Origin: an uncultured delta proteobacterium
GTDB lineage: Bacteria > Desulfobacterota > Syntrophobacteria > Syntrophobacterales > Syntrophobacteraceae
DNA: 64,000 nucleotides
Direction: 5' to 3'
Assembly: GCA_963808625.1 (NCBI GenBank)
Contig: CAWEHK010000035.1
Coordinates: 1-64,000, forward strand
Position numbers and translations under genes: made by a program
Shown here: positions 50,285 through 60,945 of the stretch, in pieces
Position numbering within the stretch: position 1 is the first letter of the stretch
Layout of the letters: each line of letters begins with the position of its first letter
The notes under the pieces: model-generated
What the model saw: only the letters and a program-made list of their open reading frames with translations
Told to the model about the DNA's origin: nothing
Database searches by the model: none

Positions 50285-50447
50285 CTAAGTACAGCACAGC
50301 AGAATAAAGTGTCCATTACCACCCGGTCGTCATTCCCGCATGCTCTTAGCGGGAATCCAGGGAATTTGCACAGCCTGAATTCCCGCCAGAAACACGCGGG
50401 AATGACGAGTGGCATTCGGACACCCATTTATGCGGGGGCGTACTAAG
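50285..50447. mobile_element. MITE-like element, copy B
   Basis: Nearly identical to 30053-30216, again bounded by CTAAG. Confidence 0.8.
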
Positions 50448-50501
50448 GGGTTTACCCGAGGTGGATTTATGCCTGCGACCGCTTGCCAGTCGGATGATGA
50501 A

Positions 50502-50723
50502 TGCCCTGAAAGGGCTTCATAAAAAATAGCCCAGGGTCAGCAAGAGCGCCACCCTGGGGAGGGGAAACCCAATTTCCTTTTCTTTACCCTGAAAGGGTTA
50601 GATAAATCGTTGTACCGCTATGTTTTATGTAACCCATTCAGGGTAGATAGTCGTGTTGTACCTGGCTCCCCAGGGTGGCGCTATCGCTGACCCTGGGCTA
50701 ATTTATCGAGCCCCTTCAGGGCA
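50502..50723. repeat. ~220-bp nested palindrome (REPIN-like)
   Basis: tgccctgaaagggc..tagcccagggtcagc..gcgccaccctgggga / tccccagggtggcgc..gctgaccctgggcta..gccccttcagggca. Confidence 0.85.
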
Positions 50724-50763
50724 GTAAAGTTAGCTTGATGCAATTGGGGATTGCCCCCCACCG

Positions 50764-52200
50764 GTGAAGCGAAGTCCGCCGCGCTCTCCCACGAGCATGC
50801 TCCGGTCCCTTCTCCTCATGACCCATCTCAAAATTCCCAGCATCACCACGTGGGTCAAACAAACGCGCACCGTTCCGCTCTTTGCCGTTCTCGCCGGCTT
50901 TGAACGGGATGACACGCCGGGGATCGGGACCTATTACGATTTCTTCGGGCGCCTCGTTGATGGTCCCTATCAGAAACCCTGTCCCCATCGGGTCAGGGAA
51001 TCTCAGGTCCTCAAGGGACGGCATCAGAGAAACCTCGGAGCGGAGAAAAAGGCCCATCTGGAAAAGCACGACCCCTCGTGCCCCCAGTCGGAAAAGCTTG
51101 CCAATGAACTCCTGGCCGATGCTGACAAGCCGCGACCGCAGGGCCTGCCAAAGTTCCTCGAAGACCTCCTCATCAAGATCGCGATCGTCCCAACCATCCA
51201 GGACGGCCTCGTTGACAATCCACATGAACTCATCGTTTCCGGCGATGGCTCCATCCTCGTCACGGCCGCCTCACCCCGCGGCAAACCCACCTGCGCCTGC
51301 CGCACCCACCAGTGCGACCATGAACGGAGCTACACCTCGCCCACCGCCAAATGGTGCTACGATCACTACCGCGACACTTACTTTTTTGGCGATCGCTATT
51401 ATCACCTGGTGCTCCATCAGAATGGCCACGACCTGCCCCTGCTCACGCTCTTGCCAGGTGGCAACGAGAGCGATTTCACCCTCTCCCTCAAGGCCTTCGA
51501 CCGTTTTCTCAAGGCCGCCCGGGAACACGGCCTCGATCTGAACATTGCCATCTTCTGCGGCGACGGCCACCATGACTCCCACGCCCACTACCGCTATTTC
51601 CTCAAAAAGGACGTCAGTCCCGTGATTCCCCTCGGCGAGAACAGCAAAAAAACCTATCCCCATTTGCTCGATGAACAGGGCGTAAAACTTGACAGCGACG
51701 GCGTACCCCTTTGCCCGCAAGGAATGCGCATGCGCCACCATCAGTATCAGGAAAGCCGCCACACTCATGTCTATGGCTGCCCGGCAAAACGCAATACCCA
51801 TCGCGACGGCAAATCAGTCTATGTCATGCACCTCGAGGATTGCCCGCAACAGAAGGACTGTGCACCCGAAAGCGTTCTCGCCCCTCTGGTCTACATCAAA
51901 TCCGATACCGACCCGCGACTCTATCCCCCCATTCCTCGCGACAGTGAGCGCTTTAAAGAGCTCTACAAAGAGCGCAGCGCCACCGAGCGCTGCAACGCCC
52001 TCAATGACACCTGCAAACTGGATCGATCATGCCGAAACGCCAGCTATGGACTGATTCGCCTGACTCTGGCGAACATCGTCGAACATGCCGTGGTCCGCAA
52101 CCTGGAAGCCGTGAAACGGTCCTCCAGGAAGAAGCTCCTGGCCCAGACCCTGAGCATGATCGGCATCATTTACCGCGAGGAATTCTTCAACAGCGGATAA
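50764..52200 (+). CDS. DDE transposase (IS4/IS1182-like), possibly 5'-truncated
   Basis: 'SGDGS','CGDGHHD','PLCPQG','YKERSATERCN'. Confidence 0.7.
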   Translation: MKRSPPRSPTSMLRSLLLMTHLKIPSITTWVKQTRTVPLFAVLAGFERDDTPGIGTYYDFFGRLVDGPYQKPCPHRVRESQVLKGRHQRNLGAEKKAHLEKHDPSCPQSEKLANELLADADKPRPQGLPKFLEDLLIKIAIVPTIQDGLVDNPHELIVSGDGSILVTAASPRGKPTCACRTHQCDHERSYTSPTAKWCYDHYRDTYFFGDRYYHLVLHQNGHDLPLLTLLPGGNESDFTLSLKAFDRFLKAAREHGLDLNIAIFCGDGHHDSHAHYRYFLKKDVSPVIPLGENSKKTYPHLLDEQGVKLDSDGVPLCPQGMRMRHHQYQESRHTHVYGCPAKRNTHRDGKSVYVMHLEDCPQQKDCAPESVLAPLVYIKSDTDPRLYPPIPRDSERFKELYKERSATERCNALNDTCKLDRSCRNASYGLIRLTLANIVEHAVVRNLEAVKRSSRKKLLAQTLSMIGIIYREEFFNSG

Positions 52201-52480
52201 CGATAGGAGTCAAAATGTAGGATTGCTGCTGCCAAACTGAATCAAAATAACCTTCGCCCGGCCGAAAGCCCCTTTCGGACCGAACACCCGAGCTGTTCCC
52301 CTTGTTTCCGGAATGCCCCGCAACTCGACCCAGGATCACCCGTTTTGACCGACCTCCGACCGTCTATCCCCACCCAATGCCCCCCCAAACCACCGCAAAA
52401 CACCCCCGCCACACCAACACGAACCGCCTTCAACAACCAATGGGCTCTCGGATTTCAATTCCGAGAGTTCTCGAAGAAGG

Positions 52481-55228
52481 ATGAACGTTTTGAAGCCAGA
52501 TCTGCAAGTGACAATCAAGACATTGCTGGGTAAGGGTCTGAGTCAACGGGAGATCGAACGAAAGACGGGGATCGATCGAAAGACCATCCGGAGGTATGAT
52601 CAGTCAACCAGTTTGATGGGGTTGCAAGAAAGTGAGCATTCAAAATCCCCCACTGAGCAAGATGTGGCCACCGGGTCGGGAAAGCCATCGGTGGACAATC
52701 CCCCATCCTGGCCACCGGCTCAGAAACCAGACTTCCCCAAGCATGTTCGTTCCGCCTGTGAAACGCATCGGGAGTGGATCCAGGAGCAGGTGAAGCTGGG
52801 CCGTAATGCCATGGCCATCTACCAGGATCTGGTGGAACTGTTCGGTTTCAATCACCGCTACAACAGCGTGAAGCGGTTTGTGCGGGGGCTCAAAAGACAA
52901 GACCCTCAGCAGTATGACCGGCTGGAATTCTTGATGGGAGAAGAAGCCCAGGTGGATTATGGGCTGGGCGCACCGACTCTTCATAGCAGTGGGAAGTATC
53001 GGCGCCCCCGTCTGTTCATCATGACGTTGAAGTATTCAGGGCGTGCCTTTCGTAAAGTTGTATGGCGATCGAGCAAGGAAACGTGGGCCAAGCTGCATGA
53101 GGAAGCCTTCCGCTATCTTACGGGGTGCCCCCAATATGTCACCCTGGACAATCTCAAGGAAGGCGTGATCAAGCCGGACATCTATGAACCGGACCTCAAT
53201 CCTCTCTATGCCGCCATGTTGGAGCACTACAAGGTGGTGGCGGACCCGGCGAGGGTCAGCGACTCGGACCGCAAGGGAACGGTGGAAAATGCTGTGAAAC
53301 ACACGCAGAACACCGCCCTGAAAGGACGCAAATTCGGCAGCATCGAGGCCCAGAATGAATGGTTGTTGCACTGGGAAAGTCGCTGGGCATCGCTGCGGAT
53401 CCATGGCCGGGCCAAACGCCAGGTAGAGGAAATGTTTCAGGAAGAGAAACCCTATCTGACGGAACTGCCCCTGAGGCCGTTTCGCTATTTTCAGCAGGAG
53501 ACCCGGACGGTCTACGATGACGGGACGATCCAGGTGGGCAACTCCTACTATGCGGCGAGTCCCGCTCCGTTAGGCAGTGAGGTGATGGTGCGGATCTTCG
53601 ATGAAGAAATCGAGATTCTCGATCCTCGCCGGATGGAGGTCATTCGTCGACATCCAAAGAGTATGCGGGCGGGTTCCTTGATGATGGAACCCGGGGACCG
53701 GATCTTCAATCCGTCTCGGGAAACGGACCGACTCTTGGCCCAGGCCGAAGCCATCGGCCCGCACACCTTCGGCTTGTGCGAGCAATGGTTTAACGAAGAA
53801 GGGCGCAGCGGCCAACGCCGGATGTATGGCCTGGTTAATCTGGTTCGGCATTACCCGGCCGACACCGTGGAGAAAGCGGCAGAACTGGCCAGACACAATG
53901 GACTGAGAAGCTCCAAAGCCTTGCGGCGGATGGTGGAGAGCATGGCCGCGGAAGCCGGGGAAAGGAAGGTCGAACCATCCGAAGGGCTCACGCAAGACCA
54001 TCCCTTGATTCGCTCGGGTGAAGACTACGCCGCCTTCTGGGATCAGCATGCCGCCCAAGCGGCGCCTGAGGCCGGAGCCGTCCCAAAGGAGAGCATTCCC
54101 TCCAGATCGCCCATCATCTGCCGGGAGCAACTGCCCCAAATCTGGCGGCAAGCAAGTTGGCTGAAGGTGATCGAGGTCTTTCAACTGAGTGTAGACCACA
54201 AGCGCCGCCGCCGAGACGATGAAATCTGGCTCAAATCACCGTTTACGCTTGAGGAGCAGGCCTCAATGCACGTCAGTTTATCGGCAAACATCTACAAGGA
54301 TTTCAGCAGCGGCAAAGGCGGCGGGATCATGCAATTCTGCCGGGAGATGCTGCGCCGGCAGGGTCGGGAAATGACCATGTTCGAAGCAGCGCAATGGATG
54401 GTAGCCGAAGGAATCTCCACGGCGAAGCCCGAAACCTTCCGTGCACACGGCGAGCGGCCGCAGCCAGAGGCAACAGGCCATCCCCTGGTCTCCAATCACA
54501 TCAATCGCGCCATCGAAGTCGATCTGCGCCGTTATCTGCGCCCGGATCATCCCGAATGGCGTCGTCGGGGCATATCCGCTGGCACCTGCCGCTACCTGGG
54601 CTGTGGGTATTTGCCAAAGCTTGCCAGGGGAAGTGCGGCCTCTCCCCTCAACTCCAGGTTAGTGTTCCAGATTCGCGGCCTGAGAGAAAACGGCCATGAT
54701 CTTCAGGCGATTATCCTGAGTCATAGCGGACGGGCACTCTCCCGTGAACAAGAAGACGCGGATGGAAAATACTGGAGCTATCCGTTCCGGAAAGGTTGGG
54801 AAATCTACAATCAGGATCAGCTTCTGTTAGATGCGGAAGCTCGCCGTCAAGCAAACACTTTTGGCCTGGTTCTGGTGGAGGGGTTTTTTGATGTGGCCAA
54901 GCTGGTGGAAGCAGGTTGCCGGAACGCCGGCGCCTTGATGGGCACACACCTCTCCGGGGAACAGATCGAGCGGTTGGCGTGGCTTCGTTCCCGCATCCGG
55001 TTCCCTCGGATCGTGTTGTTTCTGGACCGGGACCAGGCTGGGCGCAACGGAGCCCGGCAGATACGCGAGCGACTTCGGGGTCACCACTTCGAGGTGAACG
55101 TGTTTGACTGGGATCGGAACATCTCCTGGAATGGTAAACACCTTGAGCCGATCCCGGACGCTATCCAAGACCCGGCCGACATGCCGGTGGAACAACTTCA
55201 GCAGTTGCGCAGGGAAGGCATCATTTAA
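52481..55228 (+). CDS. istA: IS21-family transposase IstA fused to a DnaG-type primase (TOPRIM) domain
   Basis: HTH 'SQREIERKTGIDRKTIRRY'; DDE 'QVDYG','LDNLKEG','KGTVENAV'; then 'SPF..EEQASMHV..YKDFSSGKGG','RLVFQI','VEGFFD','ALMGT','LFLDRDQAG','DPAD'. Confidence 0.88.
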   Translation: MNVLKPDLQVTIKTLLGKGLSQREIERKTGIDRKTIRRYDQSTSLMGLQESEHSKSPTEQDVATGSGKPSVDNPPSWPPAQKPDFPKHVRSACETHREWIQEQVKLGRNAMAIYQDLVELFGFNHRYNSVKRFVRGLKRQDPQQYDRLEFLMGEEAQVDYGLGAPTLHSSGKYRRPRLFIMTLKYSGRAFRKVVWRSSKETWAKLHEEAFRYLTGCPQYVTLDNLKEGVIKPDIYEPDLNPLYAAMLEHYKVVADPARVSDSDRKGTVENAVKHTQNTALKGRKFGSIEAQNEWLLHWESRWASLRIHGRAKRQVEEMFQEEKPYLTELPLRPFRYFQQETRTVYDDGTIQVGNSYYAASPAPLGSEVMVRIFDEEIEILDPRRMEVIRRHPKSMRAGSLMMEPGDRIFNPSRETDRLLAQAEAIGPHTFGLCEQWFNEEGRSGQRRMYGLVNLVRHYPADTVEKAAELARHNGLRSSKALRRMVESMAAEAGERKVEPSEGLTQDHPLIRSGEDYAAFWDQHAAQAAPEAGAVPKESIPSRSPIICREQLPQIWRQASWLKVIEVFQLSVDHKRRRRDDEIWLKSPFTLEEQASMHVSLSANIYKDFSSGKGGGIMQFCREMLRRQGREMTMFEAAQWMVAEGISTAKPETFRAHGERPQPEATGHPLVSNHINRAIEVDLRRYLRPDHPEWRRRGISAGTCRYLGCGYLPKLARGSAASPLNSRLVFQIRGLRENGHDLQAIILSHSGRALSREQEDADGKYWSYPFRKGWEIYNQDQLLLDAEARRQANTFGLVLVEGFFDVAKLVEAGCRNAGALMGTHLSGEQIERLAWLRSRIRFPRIVLFLDRDQAGRNGARQIRERLRGHHFEVNVFDWDRNISWNGKHLEPIPDAIQDPADMPVEQLQQLRREGII

Positions 55229-55272
55229 AAAAAGTAATCACCGGATGAAAAAGAAAACAAGGAGCCAAACCG

Positions 55273-56073
55273 ATGGACATGCCGAACGCAGAAATCCAAA
55301 GACATCTTGGGGCGCTTCGCCTCCATGGTATGAAAGCCACCCTGGAGCCCCGACTCATTCAGGCCAATCAGGGCGCTTCCTTTATAGAGATGTTTGCCTG
55401 CCTGGTGCAAGATGAGCTCGATTGGCGGAGCTCAAGGCTTACTGAAACCCGCTTCAAGGCCTCCGGTCTCACAGAGCGACCCACTCTGACGGAATTCGAT
55501 TGGGGCTTCAATCCGAAACTGCCCAAGAAGGAAATCTATGAACTGGTCAGCGGCAAGTTCATTCGAGACGGCGATGACGCCCTGCTGATCGGGGCGCCGG
55601 GAACGGGCAAATCCCATATCGCCAAAACGGTGGCCCACTCCGCCATCCAGACCGGCTATAAAGTCGTGTATCGGGAAGCTCACACCTTCTTCGAAGACCT
55701 CTTCGAAGCCACTCAGCTCAAACGGAGAAAAAAGATGACCAAGCTCTTCTCCGAAGCAGATCTCTTGGTCATCGACGACTTGTTCCTGCGAAAGAAAGTC
55801 AACGATCACGCTACCGACGATTTGCTCGATATTATTCTGAATCGCTATTCCTCCAGGAAAAGTTCGATGATAACCTCAAATCGACCCCTGGAGGACTGGG
55901 GAAAACTCCTTTACGACAATGCCGCCTCCTCGGTCATCCTGTACCGCCTCCTTCACCGGGGCCATCTGCTCAAGTTCGAAGGCAAAAGTTATCGCCTCAA
56001 GGAGGCATCGATCCGGTTGACGGAAAACAAACGAAAATCTCTGGATGAAAAAGGAATAAGCTTGGATCTCTGA
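55273..56073 (+). CDS. istB: IS21-family AAA+ helper ATPase IstB
   Basis: 'FDWGFNP','GAPGTGKSH','LLVIDD','ITSNRP','GKSYRL'. Confidence 0.93.
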   Translation: MDMPNAEIQRHLGALRLHGMKATLEPRLIQANQGASFIEMFACLVQDELDWRSSRLTETRFKASGLTERPTLTEFDWGFNPKLPKKEIYELVSGKFIRDGDDALLIGAPGTGKSHIAKTVAHSAIQTGYKVVYREAHTFFEDLFEATQLKRRKKMTKLFSEADLLVIDDLFLRKKVNDHATDDLLDIILNRYSSRKSSMITSNRPLEDWGKLLYDNAASSVILYRLLHRGHLLKFEGKSYRLKEASIRLTENKRKSLDEKGISLDL

Positions 56074-56132
56074 GCAGATTAACGGTAGGTTATTTCTCTA
56101 CTGTCGCCGAAGCACTTCGACCCGACTACAGG

Positions 56133-56185
56133 GTGGGGGATTTTGACCCGGCCACAAGTGGGGGATTTTCAAGTGGCCATCCGGG
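56133..56185. mobile_element. Right end of the IS21-like element with tandem putative transposase-binding motifs
   Basis: gtgggggattttga cccggccacaa gtgggggattttca agtggccatccggg; the integrase frame breaks here. Confidence 0.75.
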
Positions 56186-56758
56186 CTTCTGGTTGTCCAA
56201 TCTGGGCATCTTGACCGAAGCGACTGGGTTTTCACCCAGATAGATCTTCCAGAGTTTTGCTAGATTATATAGACGATTCATGAGGACGATCTGATGCTTT
56301 ATAGTGGCCTCAGTGAAAGGCCTACCGTGAATATTCTTACCCTCCTTCAGCTCTGTTTTCATTCTTTCGATATCGGGACCAGTAATTGAGTCCAGGCGCA
56401 TTTTCCCGAATCGGGGTTCAAGGTGAGCCCTGTAGTTGTATTCATCACACTTCCAAGTCTTTTTATTGTGTTTAGCCCAAATTAGGTACTGTTCCAACAG
56501 ATCATTGAGCTTCGGGCTTAGATTTACCCTATGGTGGGAGATGTCGTACTCAGCCCTGACAAGGTCACCCTTTATTGCAGCTTCAGTCTCTCTGGCAATG
56601 GTGAGATTATCGACCATCCGGTTTACGCGCTTGCCCTTTACGCTGACACATACCCTGTATTTTTTCTCCCTCCCAAAAATCATGCCACAGAACGGGCATA
56701 TCTTGGAATCAATCGCGACCGAGGACCTGCACTTTGTACAATAAATTTGGATAGCCAC
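56186..56758 (-). pseudogene. N-terminal half of a tyrosine integrase (Zn ribbon + SAM-like core-binding domain) cut by the IS21 element
   Basis: 'CTKC..CPFC','YLIWAKHNKKTW','HLEPRFG..RLDSIT','ATIKHQI..MNRLYNLA..W...NPV'; no catalytic R-H-R-Y part. Confidence 0.8.
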
Positions 56759-56939
56759 GACTCACCCCTGTTCATCCGCAAGATAAAGTTCAAATCTGAG
56801 TTTTACGCGCACATTACGCGCACGGATGCAGCAAAACTAAGCTCAAATTATCGCAGAAAGTAGAACGACTTTAATAGGTAACATTATGACTTGTCAACAA
56901 TAATATGATATAGTGTTAAAAGAGAAAAAGGATATTCGG

Positions 56940-56988
56940 TTGAATGGCATTCAAGAGGTCGTCGGTTCGATCCCGTCCATTTCCACCA
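56940..56988 (+). tRNA. 3' fragment of tRNA-Ala(GGC); probable att core, not a full gene
   Basis: Anticodon arm ttgaa-tggca-ttcaa, T-loop ggttcgatccc, 3' tccacca; D-arm and 5' acceptor strand absent. Confidence 0.8.
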
Positions 56989-56993
56989 GGAAA

Positions 56994-57030
56994 AATAAAG
57001 GCTTAGGAAGGTTGCTCCTAAGCCTTTATT
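56994..57030. terminator. Hairpin, probable bidirectional terminator
   Basis: aataaaggcttagga-aggttgc-tcctaagcctttatt. Confidence 0.7.
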
Positions 57031-57578
57031 GCTGTGGATGACTTTTGGGATGACTTTTTGATCCGAGGTGGTGTTTTGACACCTAAATAGTTCTGTTCGC
57101 AGGTACGATCCTTCACAACTTCTATGGGGAAACCGTTAGACCGTACGGTAGCATAGACATCGATTCCACATGCCTCCATTGAAGGTTTTGCATCCTCAGC
57201 ATGGATGCACTCTCTCATGGTGCATTCTTTACAAAGCCGACAAGGCCCTGCACCGAGTGCCAAAGCTTTGTAGAAGCCACTGAGAAAGATTTCTCTTTCC
57301 AGCTTAGCGACAATCTTGCTTGGTTTCACTTTCCCATTACAGTGAACAAGGAGAGCCCGTTTGTACCCGTCCAGGACTTCTCTCATCATTTGAGGCGTAG
57401 GGGTGTTCGGTGGGCAACAAAGACTTGTGTTATACCCGCCACAGCCGAATTGACATTTGAGACGAACCCAAGGAGCGGTAACCACGGTCTGAGGGCTAAT
57501 AACCTTTGCCCCTGTGGCCCCGAAAGCCTTTGCTTTGGCAAGAAACTCATCAATATCTGCCAATCTTTCATCTTCCAC
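57018..57578 (-). CDS. DUF2284 metal-binding protein
   Basis: 'WVRLKCQFGC','CCPP','GPCRLCKEC','PSMEACGIDVYAT'. Confidence 0.85.
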   Translation of the reverse strand: MEDERLADIDEFLAKAKAFGATGAKVISPQTVVTAPWVRLKCQFGCGGYNTSLCCPPNTPTPQMMREVLDGYKRALLVHCNGKVKPSKIVAKLEREIFLSGFYKALALGAGPCRLCKECTMRECIHAEDAKPSMEACGIDVYATVRSNGFPIEVVKDRTCEQNYLGVKTPPRIKKSSQKSSTAIKA

Positions 57579-57735
57579 TGTCTATCCTCCTACCGAAACC
57601 CCAAACCGATTTGTCTTCTCTGTCAATGAACTCGACCAGTTGATGGTGGCGACTTTGTGGGCTGGCAACGATAATGGCTCATCGGTGTCGGGTTTGGTCA
57701 GCGTTGCCATTGCAGGCAGTCTTATTCAATGGTTT

Positions 57736-57933
57736 TCAGTCTGCTCCAGTGCTCTGACAGTGGGGGCAATCGATTTTTCCATCACCCTCGCACTGTCTGC
57801 ACGGCCGGGGTAATGGCAAAGTCTGCCATTCGCCGAGTGTTCCTGGTGGAAGATGGACAGTGCCAACACCCCGGCACTCATCGCATTTAATGGTTCCTGA
57901 ACCTTGACAAGATGGACAGTCTGTTGTCTTCAT
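57736..57933 (-). CDS. Small DnaJ-type Cys-rich zinc-finger protein
   Basis: Four CxxCxGxG-like repeats. Confidence 0.6.
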   Translation of the reverse strand: MKTTDCPSCQGSGTIKCDECRGVGTVHLPPGTLGEWQTLPLPRPCRQCEGDGKIDCPHCQSTGAD

Positions 57934-58001
57934 TGATGGTTCCCTGGATGGGTGTGATCGTGCAGCCACTCAGCAAGGCTCACATCCGTCATTCAGTGGC
58001 G

Positions 58002-58322
58002 CTACTTCTGTCGGCCTGGGACCGGCGGTTTATCTTCTTCTCGATTGACCTTCTGCCTCAATATCGTTGAGCACTTGAATGTGACCACTTTGCGCGGATC
58101 AAGCGTCATTGGCTCTCCACTTTGAGGGTTTCGTCCACGGCGTTGATGCTTCTCTCTGATGGAGAATTTGCCAAAGCCGCTGATGAGCACATCATCACCC
58201 TCTGTCAGAGATTGCTTGATTCGTTCGAAGAGCGTCTCGATGATCTGGGCCGATTCACCCTTCGTGAACAGATTCTGCGCGAATAGATTTTCTACAATAT
58301 GAGCTTTGGTCAGCGTTGCCAC
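58002..58322 (-). CDS. ihfA: Integration host factor alpha-like protein
   Basis: 'TLTKAHI','VLISGFGKF','RRGRNPQSGE','RKVVTFK'. Confidence 0.85.
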   Translation of the reverse strand: MATLTKAHIVENLFAQNLFTKGESAQIIETLFERIKQSLTEGDDVLISGFGKFSIREKHQRRGRNPQSGEPMTLDPRKVVTFKCSTILRQKVNREEDKPPVPGRQK

Positions 58323-58379
58323 GTTATCCCTTTCAATTCCGTTTGACCGTCTGGAACCAAGCCAGGATCATTTTGCGCG

Positions 58380-58955
58380 TCATCTCATAAAAATCCCAAT
58401 GAATTTGAGGTAGCTGCAATCATCTCTCGGATCATGGTGAGTCCTGACAGAATCCAGTACCCGGTAGAGGCACTTCAATCTTGTGATCAGAGTCTCAGTC
58501 TCTGCAAATGATTCGCGAAATGCAAGAATGTCATTGATGCCGTCAACAATGCCCTGAACGTTGGGTGGCAATTCGGTGAGAAACCTTGAGGGTAGGTCCA
58601 ATTGCGCCTTGCCCATTTCCAGCAGGTACACGAGTGCCGTCTCCACGTGCCTGTCGGTGATGTTCCCCCGCTCCCTATAGTTCTTACTGATCACAAACTC
58701 AATGTTCTGCAATACGTCGGCATAGGGGTCTTCGTTGCCGATGATGGATTTCATTTCCCGCTCAAAATCCGATAGCTTCTCTGCTTCCTGGCGGTCGGTA
58801 AAATACTCCTTGGACTTACCCAAGTAAAAGCAGTCTGGAGGGCAAACTATCTCTTTCTGCCTTTTCGTTCCGCAACACTGAGGGCAAATGGCAGCTCCCA
58901 ATGAAGGGCAGTTTCGTTTTCCTTTCCTTGCAGCACAAGATCCGCATTTTGCCAT
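58380..58955 (-). CDS. Hypothetical protein with Cys-rich N-terminus
   Basis: 'CGSC..RKGKRNCP...ICPQCCG...CPPDCFYL'. Confidence 0.65.
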   Translation of the reverse strand: MAKCGSCAARKGKRNCPSLGAAICPQCCGTKRQKEIVCPPDCFYLGKSKEYFTDRQEAEKLSDFEREMKSIIGNEDPYADVLQNIEFVISKNYRERGNITDRHVETALVYLLEMGKAQLDLPSRFLTELPPNVQGIVDGINDILAFRESFAETETLITRLKCLYRVLDSVRTHHDPRDDCSYLKFIGIFMR

Positions 58956-59033
58956 CGGCTAACCCCTCTTTGAGTCTCGAATGCCTATAGTCTCCGGTTG
59001 ATCGGTGAAGGGATTGGGAGAATCCATCTCATG

Positions 59034-59967
59034 TTACCCAAACCGTTCTCTCAAGATATCCATGAACTCAGGCTCCAGAGCATCGATGACCTGGATAACG
59101 CTTTCTGGATCAGCCATGTATCCTTTCTCATTAAGGAACCTGTAGAAGAATTTCAATGTTGGCGGAAAGGTGACATACTCGTGCGGCTCCGCGATCAACT
59201 TTCGCAAGAGGTAATCAAAAAGGAACTCCTCGAAGTAGGCTGGTGGAACGGAACGCAGGATGACCGGATCGTCGTGACTGTAAAGGTAGATGAAATTCAG
59301 GAACAACTCCAAATTGGATGCAAAGGCCCCGCTCTGTTCTGTTGCCCCCTTCTCGTGAAGCCATTTTTCAAAGCGATCCGCCACATCTTTTTCCATCGAG
59401 AAGTAGAAACTCTCCCATTCGTCATATTCCGCACCGTCAATAATGTACTTATCCATCCTCTTTATCTTCTCGATGGCGGCTTGGTCATGCTCATCAGATG
59501 GTATCGGTGCTGATAAAAAGCTGATGTTGCCGTAATGAAAAGGGGCGATGAGGTGAGAGACATCTTTCCTCATAAACATGACTAAGGGATTCTGAGATCG
59601 GACATCTTTTGGAAATAGAAACTGTTTTCTCTCGATCATCCTTTGAAATAGCTCCTTTGCCTCGTCATCGTTCATCTTGAAAAGAGCCTGCATGCTATTC
59701 AGGATGTCGCCTTTCCTTTCCTCCAGGTTGTCAAAAGCCCTACCCTGCAACGTGGCCTCAAAATTCCAGATGGCGTTGACAATCCCGAAAACCTCATTCA
59801 GTGCTTGATGGCTGTCTCCCGCATCTTTCATGAGAGGTTTTGCAAATTCCATCAGGGCTTGAGTGATAGAGACAGCACGGAATCCGTGTGGTGCTTCCAT
59901 ATGTTTTTCATTCCTTTGACTTAGCACGTTTTCTCTCCCTCGCTTTCTTGTCTTTCTTCTTAGCCAT
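59034..59967 (-). CDS. Hypothetical protein (probable 5' frameshift)
   Basis: 297-aa ORF; upstream MAKKKDKK start with RBS in another frame. Confidence 0.6.
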
Positions 59968-60376
59968 AGAGTCTCCCCACCCTTGGACGATAAATGAATT
60001 GTTTCAGCGCAAAAAGGATGTCAGGATACCGGAACTGAGGGTGGAACATCAAGAAGAGATCCGAAATGATTGTCGCAGAGAGGCATTAACGAGCACATTG
60101 GTATTCTGTCTATGGAATCTCGATGATCCGATAGGAAAAGGGGCCGTCGCTCCAATCAGTGGAGATTGACCATGAACTTTGAAAGAGCTACCGTTTTCAA
60201 GCTCCTGGAGCAAACCATTGGTATCCGAATCAAGATCATTTCCAACGATTACCACGAAATCCCCGGGTACGGAGACCACATCAACACCCACCAACCGATC
60301 GTTTTTCAAGTCAAGGAAGAGGAGCCCGATGATTGGGCTTTCGGGGTTCTGTTCTGCCTTTCATTGATGTCATTTA

Positions 60377-60945
60377 CTGAAGTTTCGCACACCATCTGGG
60401 AGCTTTAGGTGATGGCAAGTAGCTGACATATCGTCATTTTTGGCGGTAAGGCAGCCCCAAATGCAGTAGTGTTGATTTTGCTAAGTCATCACAACTACAC
60501 AAAAAAAGGAGCTGCCATGAAGAAGAATATCGTATTTTCTCTCTCCCTTCAAAAGGAAATCGAGAAACGCCAGCTCAATATGGAATCAGAGGTGAACAAA
60601 TCCATGAGTGAGCTGGGGATAAGGACCTTACTGCATCAGTCCGGCATCCAAAAGGAGAAGGGTTACTCAACCGTTACTCTGCTCTTTGCTCTGATCGTTC
60701 TGCCCGTGATCAGGCAATCCCTTTCAGCGCTATGGTCTGGGCAGTTTTTTGAGAACCTCATCCAAGCTCACAAGGACACTTACTACCGGTTTTTGAATTA
60801 CCCGTGCTTCAATCCTTCTTGTCCAAATGATCCAGAGGTGCTGGCAAAATGGGATCAGTGCCCGCTTTGCCCTCTTTGATTCCTGGTTTGCCTCAGACAA
60901 GGTCATCTCCAAGATCCTTGACTTTGGTTATGGCGTCATCTGTCG
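60377..60945 (+). pseudogene. Internally deleted IS4-superfamily transposase remnant with candidate left end
   Basis: End-like ctgaagtttcgcac; 'KDTYYRFLN' jumps to 'ALFDSWFAS' within ~100 bp; ends at a REP. Confidence 0.65.

Follow-up and report, generated by a model that had tools for sequence, protein, structure and literature searches.

Canonical insertion sequences (IS) of the IS21 family, such as IS5376, have a coding capacity limited to IstA, a transposase with a helix–turn–helix (HTH) domain, a DDE core and a beta-barrel, and to IstB, encoded directly 3' of istA; their ends bear repeated motifs and terminate in TG...CA, and insertion usually duplicates 4-8 bp of target DNA. In published reports, IstA of IS5376 comprises approximately 400 aa (PMC10122671), the C-terminal extension of IstA is flexible, unseen in the transposition complex and without an assigned role (PMC11208146), and IstB is a target-DNA-remodelling activator or regulator of IstA (PMC11208146; PMC10122671). 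A copy-out/paste-in pathway has been proposed for IS21 (PMC11208146; 10.1101/2023.06.07.543989), which is listed among the circle-forming families (10.1101/2023.06.07.543989). How DNA synthesis starts in copy-out transposition is poorly understood, and it is usually credited to unspecified host functions. In the present study, we analysed a stretch of 64,000 nucleotides from an uncultured delta proteobacterium (positions 1 to 64,000 of contig CAWEHK010000035.1; hereafter the window), in which the istA of an IS21-family element continues in frame into a predicted DnaG-type primase. Like canonical IS21 and IS5376, elements of this type have an IstA with HTH, DDE core and beta-barrel, an istB directly 3' of it, repeat-motif ends and target duplications of 5-8 bp. 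Unlike them, they are not limited to coding for IstA and IstB, as the fusion protein has approximately 385 extra residues that form the primase; furthermore, its IstA part comprises approximately 530 aa rather than approximately 400 aa, and the terminal bases read CCC(T/G)G... instead. The initial annotation knew of no described IstA–primase fusion, and full-text searches of the literature, with ISfinder, TnPedia and supplements outside their range, likewise yielded no description of an IstA–primase or DDE-transposase–primase fusion. The design thus appears to be a widespread, undescribed and conserved variant of the IS21 family.

T7 gp4 and Twinkle likewise join a DnaG-like primase covalently to the protein that carries it to the template; the partner there is a helicase, whereas here it is a DDE transposase, and the element encodes no helicase. 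Among mobile elements, casposons, Polintons and pipolins also supply a replication enzyme of their own, but this enzyme is a DNA polymerase; the IS21 fusion element encodes none and would need host polymerases. The IEE PrimPol-helicase, which stimulates the excision of copy-out/paste-in IS (10.1101/2023.06.07.543989), is also a primase-type enzyme tied to the replication step of circle-forming IS; that enzyme, however, is an archaeo-eukaryotic-type PrimPol encoded elsewhere, which acts in trans and promotes IS loss, in contrast to the DnaG-type module inside the transposase.

The initial annotation had reported one uninterrupted open reading frame (ORF) of 915 aa, and positions 52481..55228 of the forward strand form just that, a single uninterrupted frame from an ATG start through 915 aa to a stop. 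Conservation was scored in an alignment of 142 proteins, which comprises the fusion protein P0001, 116 of the best 120 clusters from a protein database search (the other four, of less than 880 aa, were left out), P0124 and 24 loci from a genome scan, and which may include duplicates. The gene and its parts are as follows.

52481..55228, forward strand: istA–primase fusion gene, one open frame; relatives of 800-956 aa align over 88-100%
52517..53470, forward strand: IstA N-terminal HTH and DDE core (residues 13-330; D159, D223, E269), from NF033546, the IS5376 alignment and the triad in 142/142 proteins
53465..53671, forward strand: IstA beta-barrel (residues 329-397), Pfam Mu-transpos_C_2, 29.7 bits (cut-off 27)
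53717..54070, forward strand: IstA C-terminal helical region with the tail LTQDHPLIR (residues ~413-530), helices at 413-495 and 513-524
54071..54118, forward strand: variable linker rich in Ala, Pro and Ser (residues ~531-546; ~20 aa disordered), predicted local distance difference test score (pLDDT) <50 at 524-543
54119..54409, forward strand: DnaG zinc-ribbon-like domain without zinc ligands (residues ~547-643), from the alignment with Aquifex DnaG and Foldseek match 1d0q
54410..54544, forward strand: disordered interdomain segment (residues ~644-688), pLDDT <50 at 651-673
54545..55225, forward strand: DnaG RNA-polymerase domain including TOPRIM (residues ~689-915; E800, D804, D849, D851, D897, D900), from the AF2 model, Foldseek and the family profile

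Residues 13-330 match the NCBIfam IS21 transposase model NF033546 with 240.8 bits (cut-off 160), the IstA part aligns with the IS5376 IstA structures 8q4d/8b4h (E 2e-15), and the AF2 model places strands at 338-392, within the beta-barrel recognized by Mu-transpos_C_2. Together with the DDE triad, invariant in all 142 proteins, these matches indicate that residues 1-530 are a complete IS21 IstA with HTH, D-D-E and tail, as had been annotated. In the unfused relatives L065 (62% identical) and L078 (55%), IstA stops a few residues past the shared LTQDHxLIR...F(F/W) tail; the natural C-terminus of IstA is thus the point at which the primase was appended.

By homology and modelling, the remainder of the protein is a two-domain DnaG-type primase, composed of a zinc-less ribbon-like domain and an RNA-polymerase/TOPRIM domain with every catalytic residue. 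The AF2 model of residues 540-915 has a pLDDT of 92.7, and a Foldseek search with it returned 2au3 first (E 1.6e-15), followed by DnaG polymerase domains of five other bacteria and further by the T4, T7 and Twinkle primases (T7 gp4/Twinkle, E 1e-4 to 2e-6). The matches to DnaG polymerase domains, including 2au3, 5guj, 4e2k and 1dd9, had E values of 1e-8 to 1e-15, and among the 28 listed of 35 Foldseek matches, all those with E <1e-3 were primases or primase-helicases. A 60-row family profile aligned with Aquifex DnaG (2au3, zinc-binding and polymerase domains) over 317 positions (E 6e-37), and in a sequence search of solved structures only DnaG primases were related (5vaz, E 1e-7; 2au3; 4e2k). 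Pfam Toprim_4 matches residues 796-874 (E 7.6e-11), and every primase motif quoted in the initial annotation was located in the ORF between residues 694 and 848 (RRRGIS at 694, RLVFQI at 726, SGRAL at 748, EGxxD at 799 and DxD at 848). The TOPRIM acidic residues E800, D804, D849, D851 and D897 and the basic residues R696, R726, R751 and K771 were present in 142/142 proteins, and D900 in 140/142.

The module thus resembles DnaG in its order of ribbon and then RNA-polymerase/TOPRIM domain, in its fold, and in the EGxxD, DxD and DPxD acidic residues together with the basic ones. It differs from DnaG in having neither zinc ligands nor a DnaB-binding domain, in scoring far under the equivalog cut-off, and in being attached to a transposase, whereas DnaG is recruited by a helicase. 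The ribbon domain keeps the fold of the DnaG zinc domain (Foldseek 1d0q, TM-score 0.71 normalized to the target), and Pfam Zn_ribbon_DnaG reached 21.2 bits at residues 562-625, under its cut-off of 24.9. The zinc-ligand positions read S586, T589, D607 and S610, with S in 142/142, T in 135/142, D in 142/142 and S in 141/142 proteins; judged from these residues, the ribbon domain is without canonical zinc binding family-wide. The earlier description of a DnaG-type primase was accordingly borne out for the polymerase core and for the intact EGxxD and DxD of TOPRIM, but not for the zinc-binding segment, where all four ligands are replaced. No C-terminal DnaB-helicase-binding domain follows, the protein stopping at residue 915, a few residues past the last polymerase-domain helix (903-911). 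The full-length AF2 model, with a mean pLDDT of 69.6, a predicted template modelling score (pTM) of 0.35 and a disordered linker at 524-543, models the DDE core poorly; it served only to locate disorder in the linker and to assign secondary structure, and domain docking was not read from it. Within the limits of this model, linker disorder and the low pTM suggest that the primase module is tethered rather than docked. The linker (526-550, column conservation 0.50) and the interdomain segment (651-675, 0.38) were the least conserved stretches of the 142-protein alignment.

The fusion is conserved family-wide and under purifying selection. Of 8000 candidates scored in a protein database search, 2219 proteins had E <= 1e-3, and every one of the best 120 of the listed clusters was 800-956 aa long, with 72-95% identity and 88-100% query cover. 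These clusters carry the Pfam labels rve, TOPRIM and often DnaG-ribbon, though NCBI names them only 'IS21 family transposase'. Scanning one genome per species with the fusion protein P0001 gave 76 loci, of which 40 hold a full-length single frame (39 scripted, L031 by hand), as looked for in independent genomes; istB was next in 39/39 scored full-length loci. Nine further loci have one frame across the junction and are truncated, mostly at contig ends, but L040 and L081 stop within contigs; five have both parts in a broken frame (L025, L043, L059, L074 and L083), and 14 are short contigs that stop within the IstA part. Three loci are unfused, with istB straight after an IstA of approximately 545 aa (L065 and L078) or after a partial IstA match (L096), and the remaining five consist of the primase part only at a contig start (L075), truncated loci (L090 and L098), a distant match of 28% (L099) and a chance match (L100). 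The loci that keep the frame include an isolate and closed chromosomes. The full-length copies on long contigs come, by record titles, from Acidobacteriota and Desulfobacterota-type genomes, labels of other phyla coming from short contigs whose binning is not vouched for.

Ratios of nonsynonymous to synonymous substitution rates (dN/dS) were computed for twelve loci against the window; three of them (L054, L057 and L066) showed saturation of synonymous sites across most segments. Against the other nine loci, the ratio was 0.09-0.14 in IstA (residues 90-520); within the primase part, it was 0.07-0.18 in the ribbon domain and 0.09-0.26 in the polymerase domain. Neither a stop or indel splitting istA from the primase, nor a fusion left unkept by homologues with an unselected primase part, which the initial annotation had named as outcomes that would speak against it, was thus found. 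As a separate observation, a Desulfatiglandales lineage (L057:5743-6224; also L058 and L060) has a 244-nt segment tandemly doubled between the fused gene and istB, giving a 4.35-kb element.

The source genome is a draft assembly of 54 contigs and 84.6% completeness, and the second copy that the initial annotation had suggested looking for lies on contig C36. This copy also holds one frame, of 906 aa, with a 9-codon deletion in the linker relative to the window copy, so that a 9-aa in-frame linker indel distinguishes the two; between them, dN/dS amounts to 0.21 in IstA and 0.25 in the primase part. Contigs X15 (53907-54862) and X16 (54014-54577) from two metatranscriptome-labelled runs span the junction in frame, their sole length change being the same in-frame 27-nt deletion, that is, the shorter linker form; the listed pieces from DNA runs are at most 437 nt long, and none of those listed spans 54040-54140. 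The two runs come from one study, DNA carry-over is possible and the contigs are uninformative on expression level; parts left uncovered by DNA-run pieces, and depths, were not used as evidence. The two genomic copies are also mosaic, with 65 of 89 mismatches in 53723-54972 (~5%) and only 4 in approximately 1200 nt from 54973 to the right end, where istB has no synonymous change; this pattern points to diverged copies having recombined or undergone gene conversion.

Complete copies of the element have transposed recently, and the subfamily is both widespread and recently active. The isolate NaphS2 carries six copies, 99.7-99.9% identical over 3.72 kb, each with its own 6-8 bp target duplication, and a closed chromosome of a metagenome-assembled genome (OY759599) carries three 100% identical 4.35-kb copies, two with clean 5-bp duplications and the third with an imperfect one. 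Target duplications of 5-8 bp thus occur at 8/9 insertions (NaphS2 6/6, OY759599 2/3), the two copies in CAXXLN standing outside this count; the C36 copy has no clean flanking target duplication. Complete copies are 3.7-4.35 kb long and code only for the fused gene and istB, with no polymerase or helicase gene.

When the primase part was searched against 1.84 billion representatives, 1979 proteins reached E <= 1e-3, and 81 of these reached E <= 1e-30. Among the matches were many standalone proteins of 350-410 aa that are 31-43% identical along the entire module, unnamed or called 'toprim domain-containing protein' (e.g. P0137 and P0151); they too have no zinc ligands, retaining at most one Cys, and no helicase-binding domain. 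Unlike the fused module, these plasmid or integrative and conjugative element (ICE) TOPRIM primase-like proteins, of approximately 380 aa, are separate genes near those for relaxase, coupling protein, Rep3, ParA/ParB or integrase; conjugative primases, Sog and TraC among them, also function in this manner. At five metagenome loci with relatives 46-54% identical, the neighbours are TraG/VirD4, relaxase, NikA/MobC, ParA and Rep3 (L102), relaxase, Rep3 and a type IV secretion system (T4SS) pilin (L103), integrase and ParB (L104), relaxase (L105) and integrases (L110). The 12 fused sequences and P0125 grouped in one clade of a quick maximum-likelihood tree, apart from the 38 standalone rows, with support of 98 in the Shimodaira–Hasegawa-like approximate likelihood-ratio test (SH-aLRT); P0125, on a 1.9-kb contig, is probably a fragment. 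The tree is consistent with a single capture of the primase, and the kinship shown by these comparisons places its descent among small standalone plasmid/ICE primases. When the primase part was compared by tblastn with collections of plasmids and phages, 12 and 11 records matched, respectively; each was an ordinary DnaG or phage primase with 24-35% identity, the close standalone relatives being absent from these collections. Structure, plasmid, phage and name look-ups found no characterized close relative. A standalone 339-aa gene of the primase family was also observed at 670, 1000 and 1267 kb of G279:C2 (L022-L024), in three diverged (79-95%) copies of a repeat of at least 9 kb. Besides this gene, the repeat contains one for an HTH protein, an ORF with weak similarity to T4SS pilins and large ORFs that match no family. 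IS3 transposases lie nearby; the gene context alone does not identify the type of element.

A more distant element on a metagenome contig (L128:12-5585) is IS21-like, with 49-nt inverted repeats and an IstA 24% identical, and it encodes a 188-aa ORF, a ParB-HTH-like ORF, IstA of 491 aa, IstB of 314 aa and a separate 324-aa DnaG-like protein in which EGxxD, DxD and plausible zinc ligands are kept. The presence of a separate primase gene inside this element points to a functional rather than accidental link between IS21 and primases. It is possible, if slightly on the doubtful side, that IS21-type transposons have repeatedly recruited DnaG-like primases, fused in the present clade and separate in L128.

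Considering these results, we propose the following scenario, to which we assign an even chance: the primase, delivered by IstA, primes DNA synthesis in the copy-out step proposed for IS21. One transposon end would be cleaved and then joined to the other end; the 3'-OH of the donor would prime synthesis through the element, and the displaced strand would require a separate primer. Host DnaG is normally recruited only via DnaB helicase. Without a helicase-binding domain, the fusion module could not reach the host replisome on its own, a gap that its attachment to IstA would fill, so that IstA would bring the primase to the transposition complex and the second strand of a circular or tandem intermediate would be primed in cis. 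Priming by the plasmid/ICE relatives, on single-stranded or newly initiated DNA, would presumably also proceed without a helicase. The initial annotation had imagined IstB as a loader, a role for which we found no support, the element having no helicase and IstB being described as a target-DNA-remodelling regulator (PMC11208146).

Several observations weigh against this scenario. The Pfam model of the DnaG N-terminal core, PF08275, gave no match, and the TIGR01391 score of 84.6 is far under the cut-off of 283.6. The zinc domain of DnaG and T7 gp4 is required for template-directed initiation, and the putative primase activity could be altered or absent because all four zinc ligands are lost. 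In the fragment P0130 (424 aa), the IstA tail and linker lead directly into the polymerase domain, the ribbon-like domain being missing. The fused form occurs in only 2/401 sampled genomes of this phylum, the source genome counted, and the standalone form in 1, and therefore the fusion is not needed by IS21 elements in general. Copy-out/paste-in is itself only proposed for IS21, and primer synthesis by the fusion family and by its standalone relatives is likewise putative.

The family-wide loss of zinc ligands, together with a DxG in place of the expected DxD in the related 410-aa protein P0128, would also fit the main rival reading, a module kept for DNA binding or targeting and not for making primers, which might, for example, recognize single-stranded or forked DNA and steer insertion or assembly, its active site serving only as a nucleotide or metal switch. 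We consider this unlikely, since five of the six TOPRIM acidic residues and the four basic residues are kept throughout the alignment and D900 nearly so, dN/dS of the primase is as low as that of IstA, and the separate primase of L128 retains EGxxD and DxD. Since relatives of the module are plasmid/ICE genes and insertion sequences do acquire passengers, the primase might instead be a passenger replication or transfer function, useful to plasmids or hosts and irrelevant to transposition. This is distinctly improbable: a passenger would not need an in-frame fusion, yet the fusion is kept in the 40/76 loci and in the best 120 clusters; the element of 3.7 kb and two genes has no other cargo; and a second IS21 lineage, that of L128, independently carries a primase gene.

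TOPRIM nucleases also exist, RNase M5 and RecR are among the weak structural matches and the automatic name given to relatives by the Joint Genome Institute (JGI) is 'ribonuclease M5', so that TOPRIM could be a nuclease that cuts the second (5') strand at the transposon ends, like TnsA of Tn7, and leads to cut-and-paste transposition. The entire two-domain layout of DnaG, the exclusive presence of primases and primase-helicases among the listed Foldseek matches below 1e-3, the alignment of the profile with Aquifex DnaG along 317 positions, and the relatives that adjoin Rep and relaxase genes in the manner of plasmid primases all make this very improbable. Lastly, the idea that the fusion stems from faulty assembly or sequencing, or from a frameshift that recently joined two genes in the source genome only, found no support beyond the draft status of the 54 contigs and was rejected as having a negligible probability, given the intact frame of the C36 copy, the 40/76 loci in other assemblies and the two further runs that bridge the junction.

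If the priming scenario is true, the fusion protein would be the first known example of a DDE transposase with a priming activity of its own, and it would offer a defined protein for dissecting the least understood step of the IS21 pathway. A transposase–primase fusion in an active, widespread IS would make the question of how copy-out synthesis starts concrete and mutable. It would also represent a new way to recruit a DnaG-type primase, by fusion to a transposase and not by binding to a helicase. Furthermore, the comparisons reveal an uncharacterized branch of zinc-less DnaG-like primases on plasmids and ICEs, and thousands of entries named only 'IS21 family transposase' conceal a putative second activity.

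The remaining features of the element and its surroundings in the window are as follows.

52473..56185, forward strand: left-truncated IS21-family IstA–primase element, 97% identical to G000:C36:105021-108706 over exactly that span
55273..56073, forward strand: istB, AAA+ helper ATPase of 266 aa, PF01695 E 9e-48, 163.3 bits (cut-off 24.1), Walker A/B readable
56133..56185, forward strand: right terminal inverted repeat with two direct GGCCAC...AAAATCCCCCAC motifs, 84-85% identical over 53-56 nt to the inverted left end of the C36 copy
50764..52472, forward strand: unrelated neighbour element where the left end of the IS21 element would lie, made up of a terminal segment and a transposase ORF at 50764-52200 with weak DUF772/DDE_Tnp_1 matches
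56126..56758, reverse strand: truncated tyrosine-integrase gene, Pfam Phage_int_SAM_3 at residues 84-133, catalytic domain absent

The gap between istA–primase and istB, on the same strand, is 44 nt, and istB scored 193.9 bits against NF038214, slightly under the cut-off of 200. The GGCCAC...AAAATCCCCCAC motifs are present at both ends of relatives, as they are in the C36 copy, which is complete and reaches approximately 140-150 nt further left, where it has two of them. Homology of the window to the C36 copy starts at 52473, 8 nt before the ATG, so that the left inverted repeat, the promoter region and the hairpin described below are missing from the window copy, and no trace of an IS21 left end was found anywhere else in the 64-kb window. 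Because its left end is gone, the window copy is probably an immobile, one-ended remnant in which both genes are intact. The initial annotation was thus right to place the primase inside the element, with istB and a repeat-bearing end 3' of it, but the window copy is not a complete transposon.

On the left, window positions 51686-52472 are 98% identical to C21:27702-28488, a homology that ends at 52472, and the Pfam DUF772/DDE_Tnp_1 matches of the neighbouring ORF at 50764-52200 are just under the cut-off. On the right, the 3' end of the integrase ORF overlaps the right end of the IS (56126-56185), and G+C falls from ~0.58 to 0.45-0.50 downstream of the IS (region 56000-60500); the IS appears to have inserted into an integrase gene of a lower-GC island.

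A hairpin with an 11-bp stem is conserved just 5' of the Shine–Dalgarno sequence of istA–primase (L002:1472-1502, in the complete C36 copy) and in eight relatives, with compensatory changes in three pairs and a consensus of -12 kcal/mol; it may control translation or act as a read-through terminator. A third conserved box, GGCGACAG(A/G)ACG, lies inside both ends, inward of the two terminal repeats (L002:~1451-1467, and window ~56100-56113 in inverted orientation), and is nearly invariant in 12 relatives. Further left in the window, a repeat of approximately 148 bp at 50300-50447 recurs at least 14 times elsewhere in the genome (89-99% identity), and a repeat of approximately 300 bp at 50443-50749 occurs in more than 20 places (76-94%) and matches itself on the opposite strand, being palindromic and resembling a miniature inverted-repeat transposable element (MITE).

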